A stretch of DNA of 64,000 bases, taken from NCBI GenBank assembly GCA_035400625.1, contig DAOMZT010000001.1, positions 28,866-92,865 of the forward strand. The letters run 5' to 3'. The notes beneath the pieces are model-generated. The model was not told the DNA's origin. It searched no databases and saw nothing but the letters and a program-made list of their open reading frames with translations. Of the stretch, positions 3,125 to 46,314 are shown piece by piece. The position numbers and the translations under genes were made by a program. This DNA comes from an archaeon (lineage in GTDB: Archaea > Iainarchaeota > Iainarchaeia > Iainarchaeales > CSSED10-239). Numbering within the stretch: position 1 is the stretch's first letter; each line of letters starts with the position of its first letter.

Positions 3125-4261
3125 ATGTCAGAAGAAGAATTTAAAGTAACACCTTGGGAAATTGAAGGAAAGGTTGATTATCAGAAATTAATAAAACAAT
3201 TTGGAACAAGTGAGATAAATAAGCAGATACTTGAAAAATTAAGATTAAAAACCAAATCCAAGAAACTACATCCTTTCTTTAGAAGAGGATTTATTTATTC
3301 ACATAGAGATTTTGATAAGATATTAGAAGAAATAGACAAGCAAAATTTCTTTATCTATACTGGTAGAGGCCCATCAGGAAGAATGCATATTGGACACCTT
3401 ATTCCTTTTATTATCTCTAAATGGTTTCAGGACGAATTTGATTGTAATGTTTATATAGCGATGTCAGATGATGAGAAGTTTTTGTTTAAAGACAAGTTGA
3501 ACTTTGAAGAAATGGAAAAGAACTCCAAAGAAAATTTCAAAGAAATATCTGCTGTTGGTCTTAATCCTGATAAGACTTTTTTCTTTTCAGATATTGAGTA
3601 TATTCAAAAACTATATCCTGTAGCTTTGAAGTTTGCAAAAAAAATAACTTTTTCTACAGCTAAAGCGGTGTTTGGATTTAATAATGATAATAACCTTGGA
3701 CAATTTTTTTATCCAGCAGTTCAGATTGTTCCAACAACTTTTGAAAAAAAACATTGCTTGATACCTGCAGGAATTGATCAGGACCCTTATTGGAGAATAC
3801 AAAGAGATATTGCTGAAAAGCTAGGATATAAGAAAGTTGTAGCTGTGCATAACAAGCTTTTGCCACCATTGCAAGGAATAGACGGGAAGATGTCAAGCTC
3901 AATTGGAGAAACTGCAATATTTTTGGATGATGATTTTAAGACTATTGAAAAGAAAATAAATAAATATGCTTTCTCTGGCGGACAGCCTACAATTGAAGAA
4001 CAAAGAAAAAAAGGCGGAAACACAGATGTGTGTGTTGTTTATTCTTGGTTAGAGATATTATTTGAAGAAGATGACCAAAAGCTTGAACAAAGGAAGAAAG
4101 ACTGTAAAGCAGGAAAGATACTTTGCGGAGAATGCAAGAAATACTTATCTGAAAAAATCTCAGTTACCTTAAAGAAACACCAAGATACAAAAATAAAAAA
4201 CTCTCCACTTATAGAGAAATACAAGTATAGTGGAAAGCTTGCAAAAACTATGTGGCAGTGA
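3125..4261 (+). CDS. trpS: tryptophanyl-tRNA synthetase (archaeal/eukaryotic type)
   Basis: Class-I aaRS HIGH motif (GRMHIGHLIPF) and KMSKS-like KMSSS. Architecture and length match archaeal TrpRS. Start taken at Met11 of the track ORF. Confidence 0.85.
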   Translation: MSEEEFKVTPWEIEGKVDYQKLIKQFGTSEINKQILEKLRLKTKSKKLHPFFRRGFIYSHRDFDKILEEIDKQNFFIYTGRGPSGRMHIGHLIPFIISKWFQDEFDCNVYIAMSDDEKFLFKDKLNFEEMEKNSKENFKEISAVGLNPDKTFFFSDIEYIQKLYPVALKFAKKITFSTAKAVFGFNNDNNLGQFFYPAVQIVPTTFEKKHCLIPAGIDQDPYWRIQRDIAEKLGYKKVVAVHNKLLPPLQGIDGKMSSSIGETAIFLDDDFKTIEKKINKYAFSGGQPTIEEQRKKGGNTDVCVVYSWLEILFEEDDQKLEQRKKDCKAGKILCGECKKYLSEKISVTLKKHQDTKIKNSPLIEKYKYSGKLAKTMWQ

Positions 4262-4270
4262 AATCCATAC

Positions 4271-4867
4271 ATGAAAAAAATAAGAATTGCAATCGACTTA
4301 GATGATACTTTAGTTCCTACTGTGGATCTTGTTGTTAAAGAAATACTTAGTGATAAAAGCTTTCCTGCCTTTAGGGGCTATCAATCTATTAAGGACTTTA
4401 CATATGATGAAGAGCTGGCACTTTATAGGTATATAAGAAAAACAATAAACAAACAAGACATTTCTAAATTTATGCCAATGCCAAGATCTGTTCTTGCCAT
4501 CAAAAAACTTGCAAAAGATTTTGATCTTTATATGGTGACTGCAAGAACCAAGAACGTTAAAAAGCACACAAGAATTTGGTTAAATTATCATTTTCCAAAA
4601 ATGTTTAAAAAGATAATATTTGGGCAATATAGAAAAGAAGGGGAATTTAAGAAGACAAAAGGAGAGATATGTAAAGAACTTGGAATTTCAATGATTATAG
4701 ATGACAGAATAGATTATGCTCTTGATTGTTATAAGCATGGGGTAAAAGCAATTGTCTTTGATTATAAGGACGGCTATCCATGGTCAAAGGGTAAGCTTCC
4801 AAAAGATGTTAAAAAAGCAAAGGATTGGAAAGAAGTTTTAGAAATTATCAAAAAGACAAAGTTTTAA
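4271..4867 (+). CDS. HAD-superfamily hydrolase (5'(3')-deoxyribonucleotidase-like)
   Basis: N-terminal DxDxT motif (IAIDLDDTLV) and overall HAD-like size of 198 aa. Confidence 0.55.
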   Translation: MKKIRIAIDLDDTLVPTVDLVVKEILSDKSFPAFRGYQSIKDFTYDEELALYRYIRKTINKQDISKFMPMPRSVLAIKKLAKDFDLYMVTARTKNVKKHTRIWLNYHFPKMFKKIIFGQYRKEGEFKKTKGEICKELGISMIIDDRIDYALDCYKHGVKAIVFDYKDGYPWSKGKLPKDVKKAKDWKEVLEIIKKTKF

Positions 4868-4895
4868 ACAAGTTTTATATTTAATTATATTATAT

Positions 4896-4968
4896 AGCCT
4901 GGTAGTGTAGCGGCCAAGCATGCAAGACTCTGGATCTTGCGACAGGAGTTCGAATCTCCTCCGGGCTA
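4896..4968 (+). tRNA. tRNA-Gln (anticodon CTG)
   Basis: Manual fold: acceptor AGCCTGG/CCGGGCT, D-loop with GG, anticodon stem CAAGA/TCTTG, loop CTCTGGA, T-arm AGGAG-TTCGAAT-CTCCT, discriminator A. TATA-like tract about 20 nt upstream. Confidence 0.75.
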
Positions 4969-4992
4969 TCATTGTGATTTGAGGGAATTACT

Positions 4993-5232
4993 ATGGGAAT
5001 ATTTGATGCTTTTAAAAAGAAAGAAAAAACAGAAGAAGAAAAGAAAAAAATTGAAGAGCTGAAAAAACAAAAAGAAAAGCCTGTTGCACAAATTGACCTT
5101 GCTAATTCTAAATACCCTGATCAAGTGTGTGCAGTATGTAGCCAGAAAGGCTGTGACAAGAAATGGGGCGGGCAATACTGGCATAAAAAGTGCTTGCGTT
5201 CTGTTAAGGGAATGGCAAGAGACATGATTTAA
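4993..5232 (+). CDS. small lysine-rich protein with C-terminal Cys4 zinc-ribbon-like motif
   Basis: CxxC...C...C at the C-terminus (CAVCSQKGCDKKWGGQYWHKKC). The overlapping minus ORF 4969-5184 is its low-complexity antisense. Confidence 0.4.
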   Translation: MGIFDAFKKKEKTEEEKKKIEELKKQKEKPVAQIDLANSKYPDQVCAVCSQKGCDKKWGGQYWHKKCLRSVKGMARDMI

Positions 5233-6227
5233 TTTCTTATTTTTTTATTGCTTTTGTCAAAGATATTACCAACAATTTCTTCAAGAATATCTTCAATTGT
5301 TAATAGGCCAATAACTTCTCCTGACCTATCAACAACAATTGCCATCAAAACAGACTTATCTTCAAAATCATAGAAAATATCTCCTATTTCTTTAGTTGGA
5401 GAAACAAACTCTATTGGCCTAATTATGTTTTTTATTAATTCATTACTTTTCTTTTCCTTAATTGCCTTTAAGACATCATCAACATCTACAATGCCAATAA
5501 TATTGTCTTCATCTTCAAAATAAACAGGATATCTTGAATGGCCACACCTTGAGATTATATCTATTGCCTTATTTATTTTTATATCTCCATTTATGATTTT
5601 CATTTTCTCTCTAGGAGTCATAACTTTTGTTACTGGCGTGTCTTCAAAGTCAAGAACTTTATGCATAATCTTTGCTGCACCACTACTAAGCACACCTTCT
5701 TTTCTGCTTAAGGTTAAAATTATCTTTAACTCATCTTCAGAAATCTTCTTTTCTTTCTTTGGGCGAATACATTTGCTTACAAGTCTTGATAAAAAAGAAT
5801 ACATCTTTATCAAGGGATAGAAAAGAATAGAAAGAAAATGAATTGGCCTTGAAGCTAGCAAAGAAATACTTTCTGCGTGCTGTACAGCAAAAGTCTTTGG
5901 AAAAATCTCTCCAAATGTTAAAATTATAAGAGTCATAACTCCTGCAGCTATTGCTACACTTTTTGAACCAAAAGCAGTTATAAATAGACTTGTGGCTAAA
6001 GCAGAAGCAGAGATATTAACAATGTTGTTGCCAATAAGAATTGTAACAATAAGCGTGTGAGGATCTTTCTTAAGTTTATAAAGGGTTTGAGAACCTGATG
6101 TGCCTTTCTTTAAAAGAGACTTTACTCTAATAATGTTTATAGACATTAACGCAGTTTCAGATGCAGAAAAAAATGCTGAAAGTGCAACTAAAATGAATAA
6201 AATTATGATTTGAAAAAAAGTGCCCAT
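5229..6227 (-). CDS. CNNM/CorC-family transporter (DUF21 TM domain + CBS pair + CorC_HlyC)
   Basis: N-terminal DUF21-type TM region, tandem CBS domains and a C-terminal CorC/HlyC-like segment. Confidence 0.75.
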   Translation of the reverse strand: MGTFFQIIILFILVALSAFFSASETALMSINIIRVKSLLKKGTSGSQTLYKLKKDPHTLIVTILIGNNIVNISASALATSLFITAFGSKSVAIAAGVMTLIILTFGEIFPKTFAVQHAESISLLASRPIHFLSILFYPLIKMYSFLSRLVSKCIRPKKEKKISEDELKIILTLSRKEGVLSSGAAKIMHKVLDFEDTPVTKVMTPREKMKIINGDIKINKAIDIISRCGHSRYPVYFEDEDNIIGIVDVDDVLKAIKEKKSNELIKNIIRPIEFVSPTKEIGDIFYDFEDKSVLMAIVVDRSGEVIGLLTIEDILEEIVGNIFDKSNKKIRN

Positions 6228-7816: not shown

Positions 7817-8482
7817 TTAGATAAACTTTAATTTATATAAAAGAATGTATGCAAGAGACACCATTATCACATAAACTACAGCTTTTATCAAATTCCAAGC
7901 AACCAGATAGATAAGATATGTAAATCTCATAGATTGAGTAATTAAAGACATCTGAATATATTGAGAAGGGAACACAAAGAAAGCAATAATTGTTAATATT
8001 GACTCTAATAAGAAAATTATTGTAATGATTTTAAAAACTCTACACCAAGCAACATTAAATGGAACATTGTGCTTTGAAGTGGATAGACCCATAAAAATAA
8101 TAGAAGCAACATTTACACAAAAGATCAACACTGAAAAAACCAAAAAGAAAAGATTTTCTTGAATTATTGTTAGCATTGTTGAGTTTACACTAAAAGCTAT
8201 TGCTTGTAAAATAAAATCAAGAAATACTGTTACTATAAGAACAATAAAAGGAATCCATAAATAATTAAAATATCCGTTTTTGTCATACATGTCCTTAAAG
8301 AAATTTTTGCTTTCTTTTATTTCATAATATGTTGGATTTGCAGGTATTGTTTCTAAAACAAAGCCATTTCTGTTTGCTTTTTCTGTAACTTCTCTTCTTT
8401 GGTGAGGAGTTATCTTTTTTGTTCTTTTAACATTTGTTTTAGTATATCGGTTATTTGGGTATTTATTTCTTCTTTTATTCAT
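7817..8482 (-). CDS. integral membrane protein (basic N-terminus, about 4 TM helices)
   Basis: Hydrophobic segments consistent with four TM helices. No family assigned. Confidence 0.5.
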   Translation of the reverse strand: MNKRRNKYPNNRYTKTNVKRTKKITPHQRREVTEKANRNGFVLETIPANPTYYEIKESKNFFKDMYDKNGYFNYLWIPFIVLIVTVFLDFILQAIAFSVNSTMLTIIQENLFFLVFSVLIFCVNVASIIFMGLSTSKHNVPFNVAWCRVFKIITIIFLLESILTIIAFFVFPSQYIQMSLITQSMRFTYLIYLVAWNLIKAVVYVIMVSLAYILLYKLKFI

Positions 8483-39532: not shown

Positions 39533-40732
39533 TCAAATTATTTTTTTTATTTTTTTCAAAGTCTCAGCTAATTTCTCTATTTCTTTTTTTGTGTTATAGA
39601 AATAAAAAGATGCTCTAACAAGCCCATCCTTATTTAACCGGGAAACTATAGGTTCAGCACAATGCATGCCAGCACGAGTTGCAATATTGCCATATTCATC
39701 AAGAAGAGATGAGAGCTCTCTTGACTTTATGCCCTTCAAATCAAAAAGCACGATTGAGCCTTGCTTTTTAGAATCGCAAGGATTGTAAAGTTTCAGACCA
39801 GATACATCATTTAATTTATCAAGTGCATAGTCTGTTAGAATCTTATCTTGTCTTTCAATATTATCCATGCCGATTTTTTCTAAATAATCAATTGCTGCAA
39901 GAGTTCCAAAGGCCCCAGCAATATTAGGTGTGCCTGCTTCAAATTTGTTTGGCAAGTTGTTCCATGTTGATTTTTTCAAAGTAACGTGAGCAATCATGTC
40001 CCCACCAAACTTTGCTGGCGAAAATTTGTTTAAGTATTTTTCTTTGCCAATCAACACCCCAACCCCTGTTGGTCCAAGCATCTTATGCATCGTGCAAACA
40101 AAAAAATCAATATTTAGTTTTTTAAAGTCTATTTTTCTGTGTGGTGCAGATTGAGAACCATCAACACACACAAGGATATTTCTCTCTTTTGCAATATCCA
40201 CAATCTCCTTGATTGGAGCAATAACTGCTGTTGTGTTTGAGATGTGCGCAATTGTTATTAGCTTTGTTCTATTTGTTATTTTCTTTTTAAAATCAGAGAT
40301 ATCAAAAGTAAGGTCTTGTTTTATCTCTACAAACTTTAATTTCAAACCAAGCTTTTGAGAAAGAAACTGCCAAGGCACAAGATTTGCATGATGCTCATAG
40401 ACTGTTGTTAGAATCTCGTCTCCTTTCTTGAAATAATTGCTATTATACAGCATATACATTATCATATTTAACGAATCTGTGCTATTGTGAGTTAATATTA
40501 CTTCTTTTGGAGAACAATTAAAAAACTTAGAAAGTTTTAGGTGGCAATCCTCATAGACAACGCTTGCTTCTTGAGATAACTTATAAACACCTCTGTGAAT
40601 ATTAACTGGACAATTTCTATAATAATAATCGGTAGCTTTAATCACTGAAAGAGGTTTAAGGCTTGTTGCTGCATTATCTAAATATATCGTTTTTAATATT
40701 GGAAAATCCTTTCTATATTTTTCTAAATTCAT
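39533..40732 (-). CDS. cysteine desulfurase (class V aminotransferase, SufS/NifS-like)
   Basis: PLP-lysine region CTMHKMLGPTGVGVL and C-terminal catalytic Cys loop (RAGMHCAEP). Start at internal Met (40732) rather than track start 40795. Confidence 0.8.
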   Translation of the reverse strand: MNLEKYRKDFPILKTIYLDNAATSLKPLSVIKATDYYYRNCPVNIHRGVYKLSQEASVVYEDCHLKLSKFFNCSPKEVILTHNSTDSLNMIMYMLYNSNYFKKGDEILTTVYEHHANLVPWQFLSQKLGLKLKFVEIKQDLTFDISDFKKKITNRTKLITIAHISNTTAVIAPIKEIVDIAKERNILVCVDGSQSAPHRKIDFKKLNIDFFVCTMHKMLGPTGVGVLIGKEKYLNKFSPAKFGGDMIAHVTLKKSTWNNLPNKFEAGTPNIAGAFGTLAAIDYLEKIGMDNIERQDKILTDYALDKLNDVSGLKLYNPCDSKKQGSIVLFDLKGIKSRELSSLLDEYGNIATRAGMHCAEPIVSRLNKDGLVRASFYFYNTKKEIEKLAETLKKIKKII

Positions 40733-40863
40733 GTGTTTTTCACATTCTCCTATTGAAATTAATATAGGCAATCTTTTTAAATAAATATGGGACAATATAT
40801 ATTATATAGAGTAAGCTAAAAACAGACTCTTTTTTTAATAATTACAAACAAAAATGATTATAT

Positions 40864-41148: not shown

Positions 41149-41315
41149 GGTCTTTATTTCTCTATTTCTTTAGTATTTTTAAATTCATCTATTATATATA
41201 TTTATGGTTGTGATTTTTGATACTATCCATAAATTAGTAATAGCTAGTTTTGCTATTGCTTATTTTGTAGATATTAGAAAAATAATAAAACCAATTATTA
41301 AAAATATGATAAAAT

Positions 41316-43820
41316 ATGGCAATTGATTTTGAATCTGAAGAAATTATTGTTGGAAGAAACCAAAGCCAAATAAAGAAATATGGAAAGAAGGCTACTGGCT
41401 ATATAGGCAAGGTTGTAGTGTCCAGCGGAGATGAGCCTGTTCTTGGCAAAAAAGTATTAATGGATGTCTCTCGTTCACATGTTGCGATAGTTTGTGGAAA
41501 AAGAGGTGGTGGCAAATGCCTGACAGGAGATACACTCATAACCTTAGAAGACGGAAGAGAGATACCTATTCAAGACTTAGGAAAGGAGAATAAAAAAATA
41601 ATTTCCTTACAAAAAAACCTGAAATTAAAATGTTGTAAAAAAGAACAATTCTACAAACGCACGGTAAACAAAGTATTAGAAATAACATTAAGAAGCGGGA
41701 AAAAAATAAAACTAACCCCAAATCATCCATTATTAACAGTATGTGGTTGGAAAGAAACTAAAGATTTAAAAAAAGGAAGCAGAATTGCTACACCTAGAGA
41801 GGTGCCTAGATTTGGCAACAAAAAGCTTCGTGATTGTGAAGTTAAATTATTAGCATATTTAATCGCAGAGGGCCATTTAGGGAATGGATTTGTGTTGTTT
41901 TGCAATAATGATGAAAAAATCATTTCAGAATTCAAAAATGTAATTTATTCTTTTGATAAAGGACTAAAGATATCGCCTCATGGTCGCAATAACTTAAGAA
42001 TATCTAAAATTGAAAATGGCAAAGAAAAAAACAGTTTAAGGAAATATTTTGATTCTCTTGGATTATATAATGTAAAATCAGATACTAAATTCATTCCAGA
42101 AACTATATTTCAATTACCTAAAGAACAACTTTCTATATTTTTAAATAGATTATTTAGTTGTGATGGCACCATCCATTTTGATAAAAATAAAAAAGAATAT
42201 AATATTTCTTATTCATCTTCATCTCCTAAACTAATACAACAAGTCCAAAGTTTGCTTTTAAGATTTGGATTGCTTTCAATAATTAGAACAAAAAAAACTA
42301 AAAAATTACCAAACTATGAACTAAAAATCTTGTCTTCTCAAAATTTAGAATTTATTAAAAAAATCGGGTTTTTTGGGAAAAAAGAAGAAATACAAAAAAA
42401 AGTAAAAACAAAAAATAGCAATCCTAATGTAGATACAATACCTAAAGAAATTTGGGAAATTTACAGACCAAAAAACTGGGCGACAGTTGGTAAAGGATTT
42501 GGTTATAAATCATTAAGATCATCAATCAACTATTCTCCATCTAGAGAAAAACTACTTAAAATTGCAAATTGCGAAAATAATAAAGAATTGAAAAACCTTG
42601 CAACTAGCGATATCTTCTGGGACGAGATTATTGATATAAAAGAAATTAACAAAAAACAAACAGTTTATGATATAACAGTTCCAGAAACTCATAATTTTGT
42701 TGCAAACAACATTATTGTCCATAATAGCTATACTATGTCTGTTCTGATAGAAGAATTTGCAAAACAGCCATTTGAAATTAAAGAAAGATTGTCTGTTATT
42801 GTCATAGACACTGTTGGAATATTCTGGACCATGAAATATCCAAACAAAGAAGATGCAAAGCTTCTTGAAAAATGGAATCTCAAACCAGAAGGAATAGATA
42901 TCAGAAATCTTGTGCCTTTTGGTAAGAAAGACTTCTATGAACAAAAAAATCTTCCACATGATGGTTGTTTCTCAATAAGGACTTCACAAATGGATATTGA
43001 AGATTGGCTTGGAGTATTTAGACTTAATTGGAGAGATGCAGAGTCTTCTTTGCTTTCAAGAACTATAGAGAAAATAAAAAACAAGGTTGGAAATCTTTAT
43101 GATATTGACGACATCATGAACGAAGCAAAAAAAGACACAGAAACATCATCAGAAATAATCAACTCTTTAAATAATAGATTTCTTGTTGCTAAATCCTGGG
43201 GGCTATTCTCTAGATCAGGGACAACAATGAAGGAGTTTGCAAAGCCAGGAACAATAACTATTATTGATACCAGTACTTACAAAGAAGCAATTGGCATGGA
43301 ATCAATTAGAGAACTTATTGTTGGAATACTTGGTAAAAGACTATATGAAGAAAGAATGCTTTATAGAAAAGAAGAAGAAATGGGGTTGTTATCTGGCGGA
43401 AGAAAAGAAAGCGAGATGCCAATTATCTGGATGATGATTGATGAGGCACACATGTTTATGCCTAGCGACAGGCATTCAATGGCACTTGATGTTTTGTTAC
43501 AATGGATCAGGGTTGGAAGACAGCCAGGGTTATCTTTGCTTCTTGCAACACAAAGGCCAAACAAATTACATAACGAGGCAATCTCGCAATGTGATTTTTT
43601 CTTGAGTATGAGAATGACTTCTCAAGAGGACATTATGGCTGTCTCATCAATTAGGCCAAGCTATCTTAATATTCCTATGGACAAATATTATGGACAGATG
43701 CCAAAAGACCAAGGTTATGCAATACTTCTAGATGATAACTCAGAAAAAGTAATGTTAATAAAAATTAGACCAAGAATAACATGGGATGGTGGAAAGACAG
43801 CAAATGTTTTTGTTGATTAA
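41316..43820 (+). CDS. FtsK/HerA-superfamily (DUF87/HerA-like) ATPase interrupted by an intein in the Walker A motif
   Basis: Exteins give Walker A GKRGGGK|S, Walker B IIWMMIDEAH, and the LLLATQRP motif characteristic of HerA/FtsK/VirB4. The mature extein is about 431 aa. Confidence 0.75.
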   Translation: MAIDFESEEIIVGRNQSQIKKYGKKATGYIGKVVVSSGDEPVLGKKVLMDVSRSHVAIVCGKRGGGKCLTGDTLITLEDGREIPIQDLGKENKKIISLQKNLKLKCCKKEQFYKRTVNKVLEITLRSGKKIKLTPNHPLLTVCGWKETKDLKKGSRIATPREVPRFGNKKLRDCEVKLLAYLIAEGHLGNGFVLFCNNDEKIISEFKNVIYSFDKGLKISPHGRNNLRISKIENGKEKNSLRKYFDSLGLYNVKSDTKFIPETIFQLPKEQLSIFLNRLFSCDGTIHFDKNKKEYNISYSSSSPKLIQQVQSLLLRFGLLSIIRTKKTKKLPNYELKILSSQNLEFIKKIGFFGKKEEIQKKVKTKNSNPNVDTIPKEIWEIYRPKNWATVGKGFGYKSLRSSINYSPSREKLLKIANCENNKELKNLATSDIFWDEIIDIKEINKKQTVYDITVPETHNFVANNIIVHNSYTMSVLIEEFAKQPFEIKERLSVIVIDTVGIFWTMKYPNKEDAKLLEKWNLKPEGIDIRNLVPFGKKDFYEQKNLPHDGCFSIRTSQMDIEDWLGVFRLNWRDAESSLLSRTIEKIKNKVGNLYDIDDIMNEAKKDTETSSEIINSLNNRFLVAKSWGLFSRSGTTMKEFAKPGTITIIDTSTYKEAIGMESIRELIVGILGKRLYEERMLYRKEEEMGLLSGGRKESEMPIIWMMIDEAHMFMPSDRHSMALDVLLQWIRVGRQPGLSLLLATQRPNKLHNEAISQCDFFLSMRMTSQEDIMAVSSIRPSYLNIPMDKYYGQMPKDQGYAILLDDNSEKVMLIKIRPRITWDGGKTANVFVD
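41517..42725 (+). mobile_element. intein (403 aa) with LAGLIDADG homing-endonuclease domain
   Basis: Starts with Cys (CLTGDTLI, block A). Has block B TPNHPLL, two LAGLIDADG motifs (LLAYLIAEGHLG and LNRLFSCDGTI), and C-terminal block G ...NIIVHN followed by the +1 Ser of the P-loop. Length is divisible by 3. Confidence 0.85.
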
Positions 43821-43865: not shown

Positions 43866-44546
43866 TTATTCATCAACCAATTTTGCTCCAAAATCTTTAG
43901 CAATAGTGTCTGCTATTTTTATTTTCTTGCTTGGAGCTTCTAATTGAAGTATGTTGTCTTTCTCAAAATAAATAACTAGGCTTTCAGAAGCAAGTCTGAA
44001 CTTCATGGTCTGTGCCTTTAATACTTCGTCAAATATCAGATTAATGTTTGTGGCAGGAACAATAATGTCAATTCCGACTTTCCTTCCTTTTATGTGCTCT
44101 GCTATATTATTAAGATCAATGGTGCCTACAACATTAAACTTTAGAACAAATTCAGAAATTTCAAAAGACTCAACAAGCCTCTCTATAAATTCTTTTGATT
44201 TTTTAGAGTTTTCAAATATCATTAGTCTATAGCATCTGAAGTTTTCTAGGAAAACATCTCCTGCAGCTATTTTTTTCTCATAATCGTTTATTTCTGCATT
44301 AATGTTCTCTATAAGGATTAGCATTTTTTTATATAAGGAAATCAGTTCTCTTTTTTTTATTTCTTCTTCAATTATAGAATTTAAAAGCGGTTCTTTCTCG
44401 CTAATGTCTTGTAACTCTTTAACATCTTGAGCAAGTGATGATATTACCTCTTGCACTGGCTTATAGAGCTCTAGAATCTTATTTGTCCTATACAAGTTTT
44501 TATTTAAAGAATCAAATAATCTAGTTAATTTTGGATCTTCTGGCAT
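43866..44546 (-). CDS. hypothetical protein (226 aa, N-terminal coiled coil)
   Basis: Clean ORF convergent with the HerA-like gene. No family assigned. Confidence 0.4.
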   Translation of the reverse strand: MPEDPKLTRLFDSLNKNLYRTNKILELYKPVQEVISSLAQDVKELQDISEKEPLLNSIIEEEIKKRELISLYKKMLILIENINAEINDYEKKIAAGDVFLENFRCYRLMIFENSKKSKEFIERLVESFEISEFVLKFNVVGTIDLNNIAEHIKGRKVGIDIIVPATNINLIFDEVLKAQTMKFRLASESLVIYFEKDNILQLEAPSKKIKIADTIAKDFGAKLVDE

Positions 44547-45564: not shown

Positions 45565-46314
45565 TTATTTAACAAATCTTTTGCGAAACGAATAATACAT
45601 GGTTGCATTTTTCTGTTTGGCAACTTTAGAAACTTCTGATAAGAAATCAACAATATTATCTGCACTCATTTTCTTTAATTCTGTTGGTTTAAAGCCTTTA
45701 TGAAACACAGAATTAAAATCTTCAACATATGTTTGATAGATAGATTCATAAGCGTGTTTGGCTTCAGCTTTTGAATAAATTGAAATTTTATTTATAATGT
45801 CAATTTCCTGAGAAAATAAATCTTTAAATTTAGTATCCATTATCTCTTTAACTGTGCCTTTCCTTGAAGCTTTTAAGACAGTATTTAATTTTTTTGTCCA
45901 ACTCTCCATTTGTCTTTTCTTAATTGCCGTTAATCTTCTTCTTTCTGCAACTGCTAAATCGTGTGTTCTTTGTGTTTCTAAATCAGATATCTTTCTTTTA
46001 TATTTCAATTTTAAATCAGTTATCTTTTGCTCATAAATCTTTTTATCTAAATCAATTTTCATTTGTTCTTTTTTGTTTGCACCAACTGTTTTTTCCAATG
46101 ATTTAATTTTCTTTTCATATACTTTTAACAATGAATCTCTATTTTGTTCGGTAAAAGCTACTTTCTCATTAAATGCTCTTGTGCCTGGCTTTGTTAGTTT
46201 CCCGGTCTTTGGGTTTCTTTTATAGCCAAGTTCTGATGGCGTGGCTCTTTTGCCGGTTATTGCCTTTCTTGCTTTTAAATATATCCTTGGTTTAGTTGCT
46301 CTTGGTTTTATCAT
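45565..46314 (-). CDS. hypothetical protein with K/R/P-rich N-terminal tail and coiled-coil region
   Basis: Basic repetitive N-terminus (KPRATKPRIYLKARKAITGKRATP...). Confidence 0.4.
   Translation of the reverse strand: MIKPRATKPRIYLKARKAITGKRATPSELGYKRNPKTGKLTKPGTRAFNEKVAFTEQNRDSLLKVYEKKIKSLEKTVGANKKEQMKIDLDKKIYEQKITDLKLKYKRKISDLETQRTHDLAVAERRRLTAIKKRQMESWTKKLNTVLKASRKGTVKEIMDTKFKDLFSQEIDIINKISIYSKAEAKHAYESIYQTYVEDFNSVFHKGFKPTELKKMSADNIVDFLSEVSKVAKQKNATMYYSFRKRFVK

Follow-up and report, generated by a model that had tools for sequence, protein, structure and literature searches.

The 64,000-nt stretch of archaeal DNA analysed here (the window; all coordinates are window positions, 1-based) carries a gene for a compact ATPase related to HerA. 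The P-loop (Walker A motif) of this ATPase is split by an in-frame segment of 403 amino acids, which is very probably a class-1 intein that contains a LAGLIDADG homing endonuclease. According to this reading the intein lies between the Walker A Lys and Ser of a HerA-fold ATPase, the organism being a DPANN archaeon related to Iainarchaeota. The layout of the gene, with the evidence for each part, is as follows (L001 is the locus of the nearest intein-free relative, described below):

41316..43820, + strand: host gene, compact HerA-like (DUF87) ATPase precursor; one open reading frame (ORF), 834 amino acids with the predicted intein and 431 when spliced
41316..41516, + strand: N-extein of 67 amino acids, ending in the first half of Walker A, GKRGGGK (41496-41516); end-to-end alignment with intein-free homologues
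41517..42725, + strand: predicted intein of 403 amino acids, from Cys1 to His-Asn; Pfam and NCBIfam matches, 1209-nt indel relative to L001, AlphaFold2 model
41517..41816, + strand: N-terminal half of the splicing (HINT) domain, holding Cys1 of block A (41517-41519) and the block B motif TPNH (41715-41726); invariant residues, matches to DnaB mini-inteins in the PDB
41817..42551, + strand: LAGLIDADG homing-endonuclease domain, limits approximate; Pfam LAGLIDADG_3, conserved motifs, structural matches to I-DmoI and PI-PfuI
41847-41873, + strand: LAGLIDADG motif 1, LLAYLIAEG (Glu118); kept across the intein family
42138-42167, + strand: LAGLIDADG motif 2, FLNRLFSCDG (Asp216); kept across the intein family
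42552..42725, + strand: C-terminal splicing half; invariant residues, alignment with DnaB mini-inteins over residues 363-403
42606-42632, + strand: block F, SDIFWDEII, within the C-terminal splicing half
42690-42725, + strand: block G, HNFVANNIIVHN, ending in IIVHN and followed by Ser+1
42726..43820, + strand: C-extein, 364 amino acids and stop, beginning with SYTM (42726-42737); Ser+1 codon at 42726-42728
43422-43451, + strand: Walker B, IIWMMIDEAH, in the C-extein
43545-43559, + strand: ATQRP motif, in the C-extein

The insert corresponds exactly to precursor residues 68-470 (window 41517-42725), and its junctions read GKRGGGK/C...403 amino acids...HN/SYTM, the slash marking the splice sites here and below. 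Excision gives a contiguous Walker A motif GKRGGGKS, the junction of the spliced product reading GGGK-SYTMSVLIEEFAK. The Ser+1 residue thereby has a double role, being the splicing nucleophile and the P-loop Ser of the host. A preliminary description of this DNA had placed the intein at 41517-42725 with Cys1, a TxxH motif, the terminal His-Asn and a +1 Ser; re-reading of the ORF shows that these assignments are accurate to the base. The restored GKRGGGKS, the Walker B motif MIDEAH and the TQRP motif downstream, claimed in the same place, were all located in the spliced ORF.

Sequence and fold of the insert

The resemblance of the insert to inteins is far beyond chance, as judged by its matches to Pfam Intein_splicing (E 7e-31, 107 bits at a gathering cut-off of 35.8) and LAGLIDADG_3 (E 2e-17, above the gathering score). 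The NCBIfam models of the N-terminal and C-terminal intein parts both match as well, and the top profile match is the intein-containing DnaB model PRK07773 of NCBIfam (E 3.6e-80, residues 1-403). The solved structures nearest by sequence are the DnaB mini-inteins 4o1r, 6frg and 1mi8, the matches spanning intein residues 2-96 and 363-403, and VMA, CDC21, RadA and RecA inteins. In an alignment of 32 inteins the residues C1, T67, H70, H392, N393, F394, H402 and N403 are invariant, and both LAGLIDADG motifs with their acidic residues E118 and D216 are conserved in the alignments of the intein family. The two LAGLIDADG motifs of the preliminary description are both present, with the LAGLIDADG_3 match behind them; compared with known intein families, the insert matches intein models in Pfam and NCBIfam and inteins in the PDB, and its splicing blocks survive the 32-intein alignment.

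The AlphaFold2 model of the insert has a mean predicted local distance difference test score (pLDDT) of 93.3 and a predicted template modelling score of 0.92. Its top Foldseek match in the PDB is the TliVMA intein 7qss (E 8.5e-28, template modelling (TM) score 0.75), and PhoVMA, PI-PfuI, PI-TkoII and PI-SceI are also among the best. The splicing domain of the model matches DnaB mini-inteins with target-normalised TM scores of 0.78-0.87 (HINT fold), and the endonuclease part matches I-DmoI and I-Tsp061I over ~196-205 alignment columns. The secondary structure of residues 106-282 is a double alpha-beta-beta-alpha-beta-beta-alpha arrangement, which is the LAGLIDADG pattern. The two-domain plan, HINT plus double-LAGLIDADG endonuclease, is common to the window intein and to TliVMA and PhoVMA (7qss, 7qst), PI-PfuI (1dq3), PI-TkoII (2cw7) and PI-SceI; however, sequence identity to these is only 11-23%, and they reside in other hosts at other insertion sites. 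With Cys1 present, the TxxH motif, the HN/Ser junction, the HINT fold and intein-free alleles among its relatives, the insert looks like an intein of class 1.

Occupied and empty alleles of the P-loop site

The spliced 431-residue sequence finds 3521 homologues, and the top-scoring ones (hundreds) are nearly all 430-432 amino acids long and have no insert. S68, D306, E307 and T342-R344 of the spliced sequence are invariant in the intein-free homologues. The nearest of these, P0001, is 94% identical to the spliced sequence over the full length. It is encoded at L001, on a 429-kb contig whose gene order is shared with the window: Alba, cysteine desulfurase, L44e, the ATPase, a 226-residue gene and thioredoxin reductase. 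The extein nucleotide identity between the two loci is 88.5%. The empty site of L001 reads GGAGGGGGAAAA followed directly by AGCTACGCT (its centre at the P-loop being GGGGGAAAA followed by AGCTACGCT, and an example of the empty-allele sequence being ...GGAAAAAGAGGAGGGGGAAAAAGCTACGCTATG...), and in the window GGTGGTGGCAAA and AGCTATACT are separated by 1209 nt, so that the two alleles differ by a precise 1209-nt indel. The identical 834-residue protein is encoded by 22 contigs that stem from different samples and were assembled independently with different assemblers, which shows that the interrupted gene is not an assembly artefact.

Occupancy of the site was surveyed in the best 80 species-representative genome loci by homology. 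All but two of these, which were binned as Thaumarchaeota and Chloroflexi, come from archaeal metagenome-assembled genomes; the names Iainarchaeum or ainarchaeum are frequent among them, and one locus belongs to the complete genome of Ca. Forterrea multitransposorum (Iainarchaeota). The P-loop site is occupied by in-frame inteins of 355-433 amino acids in 15 loci and empty in the other 65. Even closely related loci differ from each other: at 78-95% extein identity, L005-L009 lack an intein and L010-L012 have one. Extein-only alignment to the homologues thus agrees with the earlier view of the 403-residue segment as an insertion, since the segment is optional, with hundreds of empty homologues, the 1209-nt gap in L001 and the 65 empty loci of the survey.

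A search with the intein alone gave the same host for ~75 of the best 120 matches, with junctions RG[GS]GK/C...HN/SY and intein identities of 44-82%. Carriers of an intein at this site are found in Diapherotrites/Iainarchaeota, Woesearchaeota, Nanoarchaeota, Pacearchaeota and Parvarchaeota. Shortened or mini-inteins occupy the identical P-loop site in other DPANN genomes (P0092, 160 amino acids; P0190, 214; P0174, 279; L084, ~3936-5000, 355), and their endonuclease domain is wholly or partly lost. Full, mini and empty alleles side by side are what one expects of a homing intein that goes through a cycle of invasion, decay and loss.

Walker B is a second point of intein insertion in this ATPase family: P0256 (886 amino acids) and P0275 (1300 amino acids) have junctions VLDE/C...HN/CHEF there, and P0275 bears an intein in the P-loop as well. 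The second site maps to ~43443/43444 of the window, where it would split DEAH after the Glu codon; the +1 Cys takes the place of Ala. The window ATPase has no intein at the Walker B site.

Predicted splicing and homing, and alternative explanations

The insertion is precise, its catalytic residues are conserved, the fold is that of an intein, the site is polymorphic, and both exteins and intein are under purifying selection; all this is observed directly. The mechanism outlined here follows from established intein chemistry. The 834-residue precursor would be translated with Lys67 and Ser68 of the host 403 residues apart, in which state normal ATP binding and hydrolysis are not expected. Splicing would start with an N-S acyl shift at Cys1, continue with a transesterification in which Ser+1 is the attacker and with cyclisation of Asn403, and be completed by an O-N shift sealing GKRGGGKS, so that a 431-residue ATPase and a free 403-residue intein would be released. 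Once released, the intein presumably uses its endonuclease to cleave alleles that lack it, at the site coding for the P-loop, and repair would copy the intein in (homing). The patchy distribution of full, mini and empty alleles among the relatives may be accounted for by this proposed homing cycle.

Selection was estimated from the window allele and its three closest occupied alleles. The ratio of nonsynonymous to synonymous substitution rates (dN/dS) is 0.05-0.10 in the exteins; the splicing domain has 0.11-0.13 and the endonuclease domain 0.11-0.21. Such strong constraint on exteins whose P-loop is split suggests that splicing restores a working protein, and the constraint seen in the endonuclease domain agrees with an active enzyme. 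A recent foreign origin of the intein is unsupported by its composition: its GC content of 27.7%, and of 19.1% at third codon positions, is inside the range of the window genes (30.0 ± 3.7% and 21.8 ± 5.6%, respectively, in 46 long window ORFs), so the intein is not detectably recent.

Several points weigh against this interpretation. For any allele of this host, we infer splicing, endonuclease cleavage and the target site from sequence, and endonuclease activity in particular goes beyond what sequence tells. The dN/dS figures are rough, because dS is near saturation (0.6-1.2) and the genome is AT-rich. In addition, the window intein has 403 amino acids against 416-440 in most family members, its endonuclease domain being ~20-30 residues shorter, which could be incipient decay. 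The window element is nevertheless very probably a real canonical intein with a homing endonuclease, and it is probably active.

It is scarcely conceivable that the 403-residue segment belongs natively to the ATPase and is never excised, that the gene has been disrupted and is a pseudogene, or that assembly has produced a chimera. Homologues lack precisely this segment, every splicing residue is present in it, the reading frame is intact in the window and in 15 of 15 occupied species loci, the extein dN/dS between occupied alleles is as low as stated above, and the identical protein recurs on the 22 contigs; all three possibilities were rejected on these grounds. An intein that splices but whose homing endonuclease is already inactive deserves more attention. 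Such an element would no longer be mobile; it would be a passenger, inherited vertically and turning into a mini-intein. The same-site mini-inteins (P0092, P0190, P0174 and L084) show that endonucleases do decay in this lineage, the window intein is shorter than most of its full-length relatives, and the dN/dS of its endonuclease domain is somewhat above that of the exteins. We consider this state possible but unlikely, as the LAGLIDADG motifs together with E118 and D216 are intact and conserved, the dN/dS of the domain still indicates purifying selection, and the patchy presence in close relatives (L005-L009 empty, L010-L012 occupied) fits ongoing gain and loss.

Less probable again, though not negligible, is conditional protein splicing, with the intein recruited by the host as a post-translational switch which would keep the ATPase off until a signal, for example redox state, metal or temperature, permits splicing. 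Its position in the P-loop means that the precursor is not a normal ATPase, and there are several Cys residues in the intein. For Msm DnaBi1 and Pho RadA, two other inteins located at or close to the P-loop of an ATPase, conditional splicing has been documented (PMC6195587, PMC4513877), and selective retention of P-loop inteins has been argued by Novikova et al. (PMC4760082). However, the intein is dispensable, being absent from 65 of the 80 related species, the family alignment shows no conservation of its additional Cys residues, and with Ser at +1 a Cys1-Cys+1 disulfide trap is impossible; selfish persistence suffices for all the data.

Host ATPase, related inteins and significance

The spliced host sequence matches Pfam DUF87 (E 9e-13, 49.2 bits at a cut-off of 23.2), and the top Foldseek matches of its AlphaFold2 model (pLDDT 79.8) are all HerA, among them Sulfolobus HerA 4d2i (E 2e-17, TM score 0.59), Thermococcus HerA-NurA 9x1l and anti-phage HerAs. 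The DUF87 match above cut-off and the HerA fold are in keeping with the HerA/FtsK-superfamily assignment of the preliminary description. With HerA (Sulfolobus 4d2i, Thermococcus HerA-NurA, SIR2-HerA and DUF4297-HerA) the host has in common the fold, Walker A, the Walker B DEAH and TQRP. In contrast, its P-loop starts at residue 61 and not at ~165 as in the NCBIfam HerA model, host residue 51 aligning with model position 155. The host therefore lacks about 100 N-terminal residues of HerA, the region in which HerA has its HAS barrel. Against the NCBIfam HerA equivalogs it scores 31-50 bits at cut-offs of 800-970. Since ~50 bits are to be set against 800-970, the host is not an orthologue of HerA proper (NF040819/NF040937) or of anti-phage HerA (NF042943/4), and both candidates were rejected on the scores, the short N-terminus and the gene neighbourhood. 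No gene for NurA, Mre11, Rad50, SIR2 or DUF4297 is found among the neighbours in 82 loci.

The short N-terminus remarked upon in the preliminary description is therefore real, but the possibly undescribed family suggested there is in fact large and catalogued, though uncharacterised: there are 3521 homologue matches, and 300 cluster representatives at E<=1e-30, named 'ATP-binding protein' or 'HerA-like ATPase' in the sources. Distant members (P0297, P0309, P0335, P0321 and P0299) are fused to winged helix-turn-helix (wHTH; MarR/TrmB/PaaX), SAP, DUF835 and subtilase domains. From the fold and the wHTH and SAP associations, a DNA-related pumping function of the host is plausible.

The exact 834-residue protein is present in GenBank as HNW05656.1 and HPV65883.1, under the name 'LAGLIDADG family homing endonuclease', and in JGI as 'intein/homing endonuclease'. 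HRS42484.1 is likewise a GenBank equivalent of 41316-43820, with the endonuclease name on the whole 834 amino acids. Automated annotation already saw the intein, yet it obscured the host ATPase, which is invisible to name-based searches because GenBank names the whole protein after the endonuclease.

Several neighbours of the gene recur between loci. In 39 of the 82 loci (L005-L084 neighbourhoods) the gene of a ~160-residue wHTH protein with a coiled-coil N-terminus lies upstream of the ATPase gene in the same orientation; it is not present in the window. A coiled-coil protein gene at 43866-44546 (-) is convergent with the ATPase gene and conserved in position in 29 of the 82 loci; together with another one at 45565-46314 (-) it flanks the thioredoxin reductase gene. 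The two belong to no clear family, their Pfam matches being weak only (Lzipper-MIP1, E 0.04; Filament, E 4e-4), and the Pfam scan of the neighbours as a whole gave only weak coiled-coil and wHTH hints. At L001 a gene for a 224-residue multi-pass membrane protein (5323-5997) lies between L44e and the ATPase and stops 3 nt before the ATPase start. At 41149-41315 of the window this gene is deleted, ~19 recognisable codons remaining at 41216-41272 (FDTIHKLVIASFAIAYFVD); a similar membrane protein gene (~225 amino acids) stands directly upstream of the ATPase in 14 of the 82 loci. The cysteine desulfurase ORF at 39533-40795 (-) has a TTG start and 420 amino acids. Gene calls in other assemblies give 399 or 420 and the L001 relative has 400; translation probably begins at the internal ATG (MNLEKYRKDF...).

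When a hidden Markov model of the intein family was compared with all six-frame segments of the window, no further related intein was found; the best other match, at 7965-8159 (E 0.056), was dismissed as antisense to a membrane-protein gene. There is no rRNA or intron context for the endonuclease, Rfam giving four tRNAs only in the window.

P-loop inteins are well documented, at DnaB site b, MCM site a and RFC site a (PMC4760082), and in one of these the +1 residue is also the Mg-coordinating Ser (PMC4760082, PMC6195587). The nearest inteins outside the present host are those of bacterial DnaB at the P-loop (site b; junctions PSMGK/C...HN/T), the whole sequence, endonuclease included, being 28-37% identical, followed by DnaB site-a inteins (LRESG/C...HN/SIEQD). 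Site b is the same Walker A position, Lys/Ser or Thr, as in the window (RGGGK/C...HN/S). In the M. smegmatis intein at this site (Msm DnaBi1) the +1 residue is both the splicing nucleophile and the P-loop hydroxyl residue (PMC6195587), and this double role is seen in the window intein too. The hosts differ, DnaB being RecA-like and bacterial and the window host a HerA/FtsK-type ATPase of DPANN archaea. Msm DnaBi1 is moreover a class-3 mini-intein, whereas the window intein has Cys1 and looks like class 1.

Related inteins with an endonuclease were also seen after Gly-Lys and before Ser/Thr in unrelated hosts (P0207, P0215, P0205 and P0188), namely a TPR-AAA+ ATPase (GCGK/T), a dCTP deaminase (LGK/ST), a DnaB-like protein (SGK/T) and an unidentified host (TGK/T). 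In a rough, unbootstrapped neighbour-joining tree the inteins of the HerA-like (DUF87) host are monophyletic and cluster with the DnaB site-b, dCTP deaminase and unidentified-host inteins, apart from those of DnaB site a; the TPR-AAA+ intein, of like junction type, could not be placed and was left out. This hints, as a lead only, at movement of inteins between P-loop-like sites of unrelated proteins. That all GK/[ST]-site inteins are one mobile lineage, jumping repeatedly between unrelated proteins with an endonuclease that recognises DNA coding for Gly-Lys-Ser/Thr, is a tentative idea which we think more likely to fail than to hold.

A literature search for inteins together with HerA and together with DPANN gave no account of the window allele or of a P-loop intein in a HerA-like/DUF87 protein, the COG0433 entries in the supplementary tables of Novikova et al. 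2016 lying outside that search. The element is real, yet unremarkable among selfish elements of this well-known kind; its host is new to the intein papers searched, and the current understanding of inteins is unchanged by it. It adds a host and a site (a compact HerA-like ATPase, Walker A Lys/Ser) to the catalogue of P-loop inteins, for which the searched papers cover DnaB, MCM, RFC, RadA and others. Its DnaB-like splicing domain, which comes from a probably mesophilic organism, could also be a candidate for protein-engineering tools. Public data contain an unusually full series of alleles (full-length, shortened, mini and empty, with a second site in Walker B), which is a usable natural system for the homing cycle of inteins in small-genome symbiotic archaea. 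If the proposed movement between P-loop-like sites is true, the HerA-like ATPase of DPANN archaea would be a landing pad of a P-loop-hopping intein and, with the second site in Walker B, an intein hot spot. If the DNA-related function suggested for the host is true, the conserved compact ATPase and its wHTH partner would be an unstudied DNA-handling machine of DPANN archaea.

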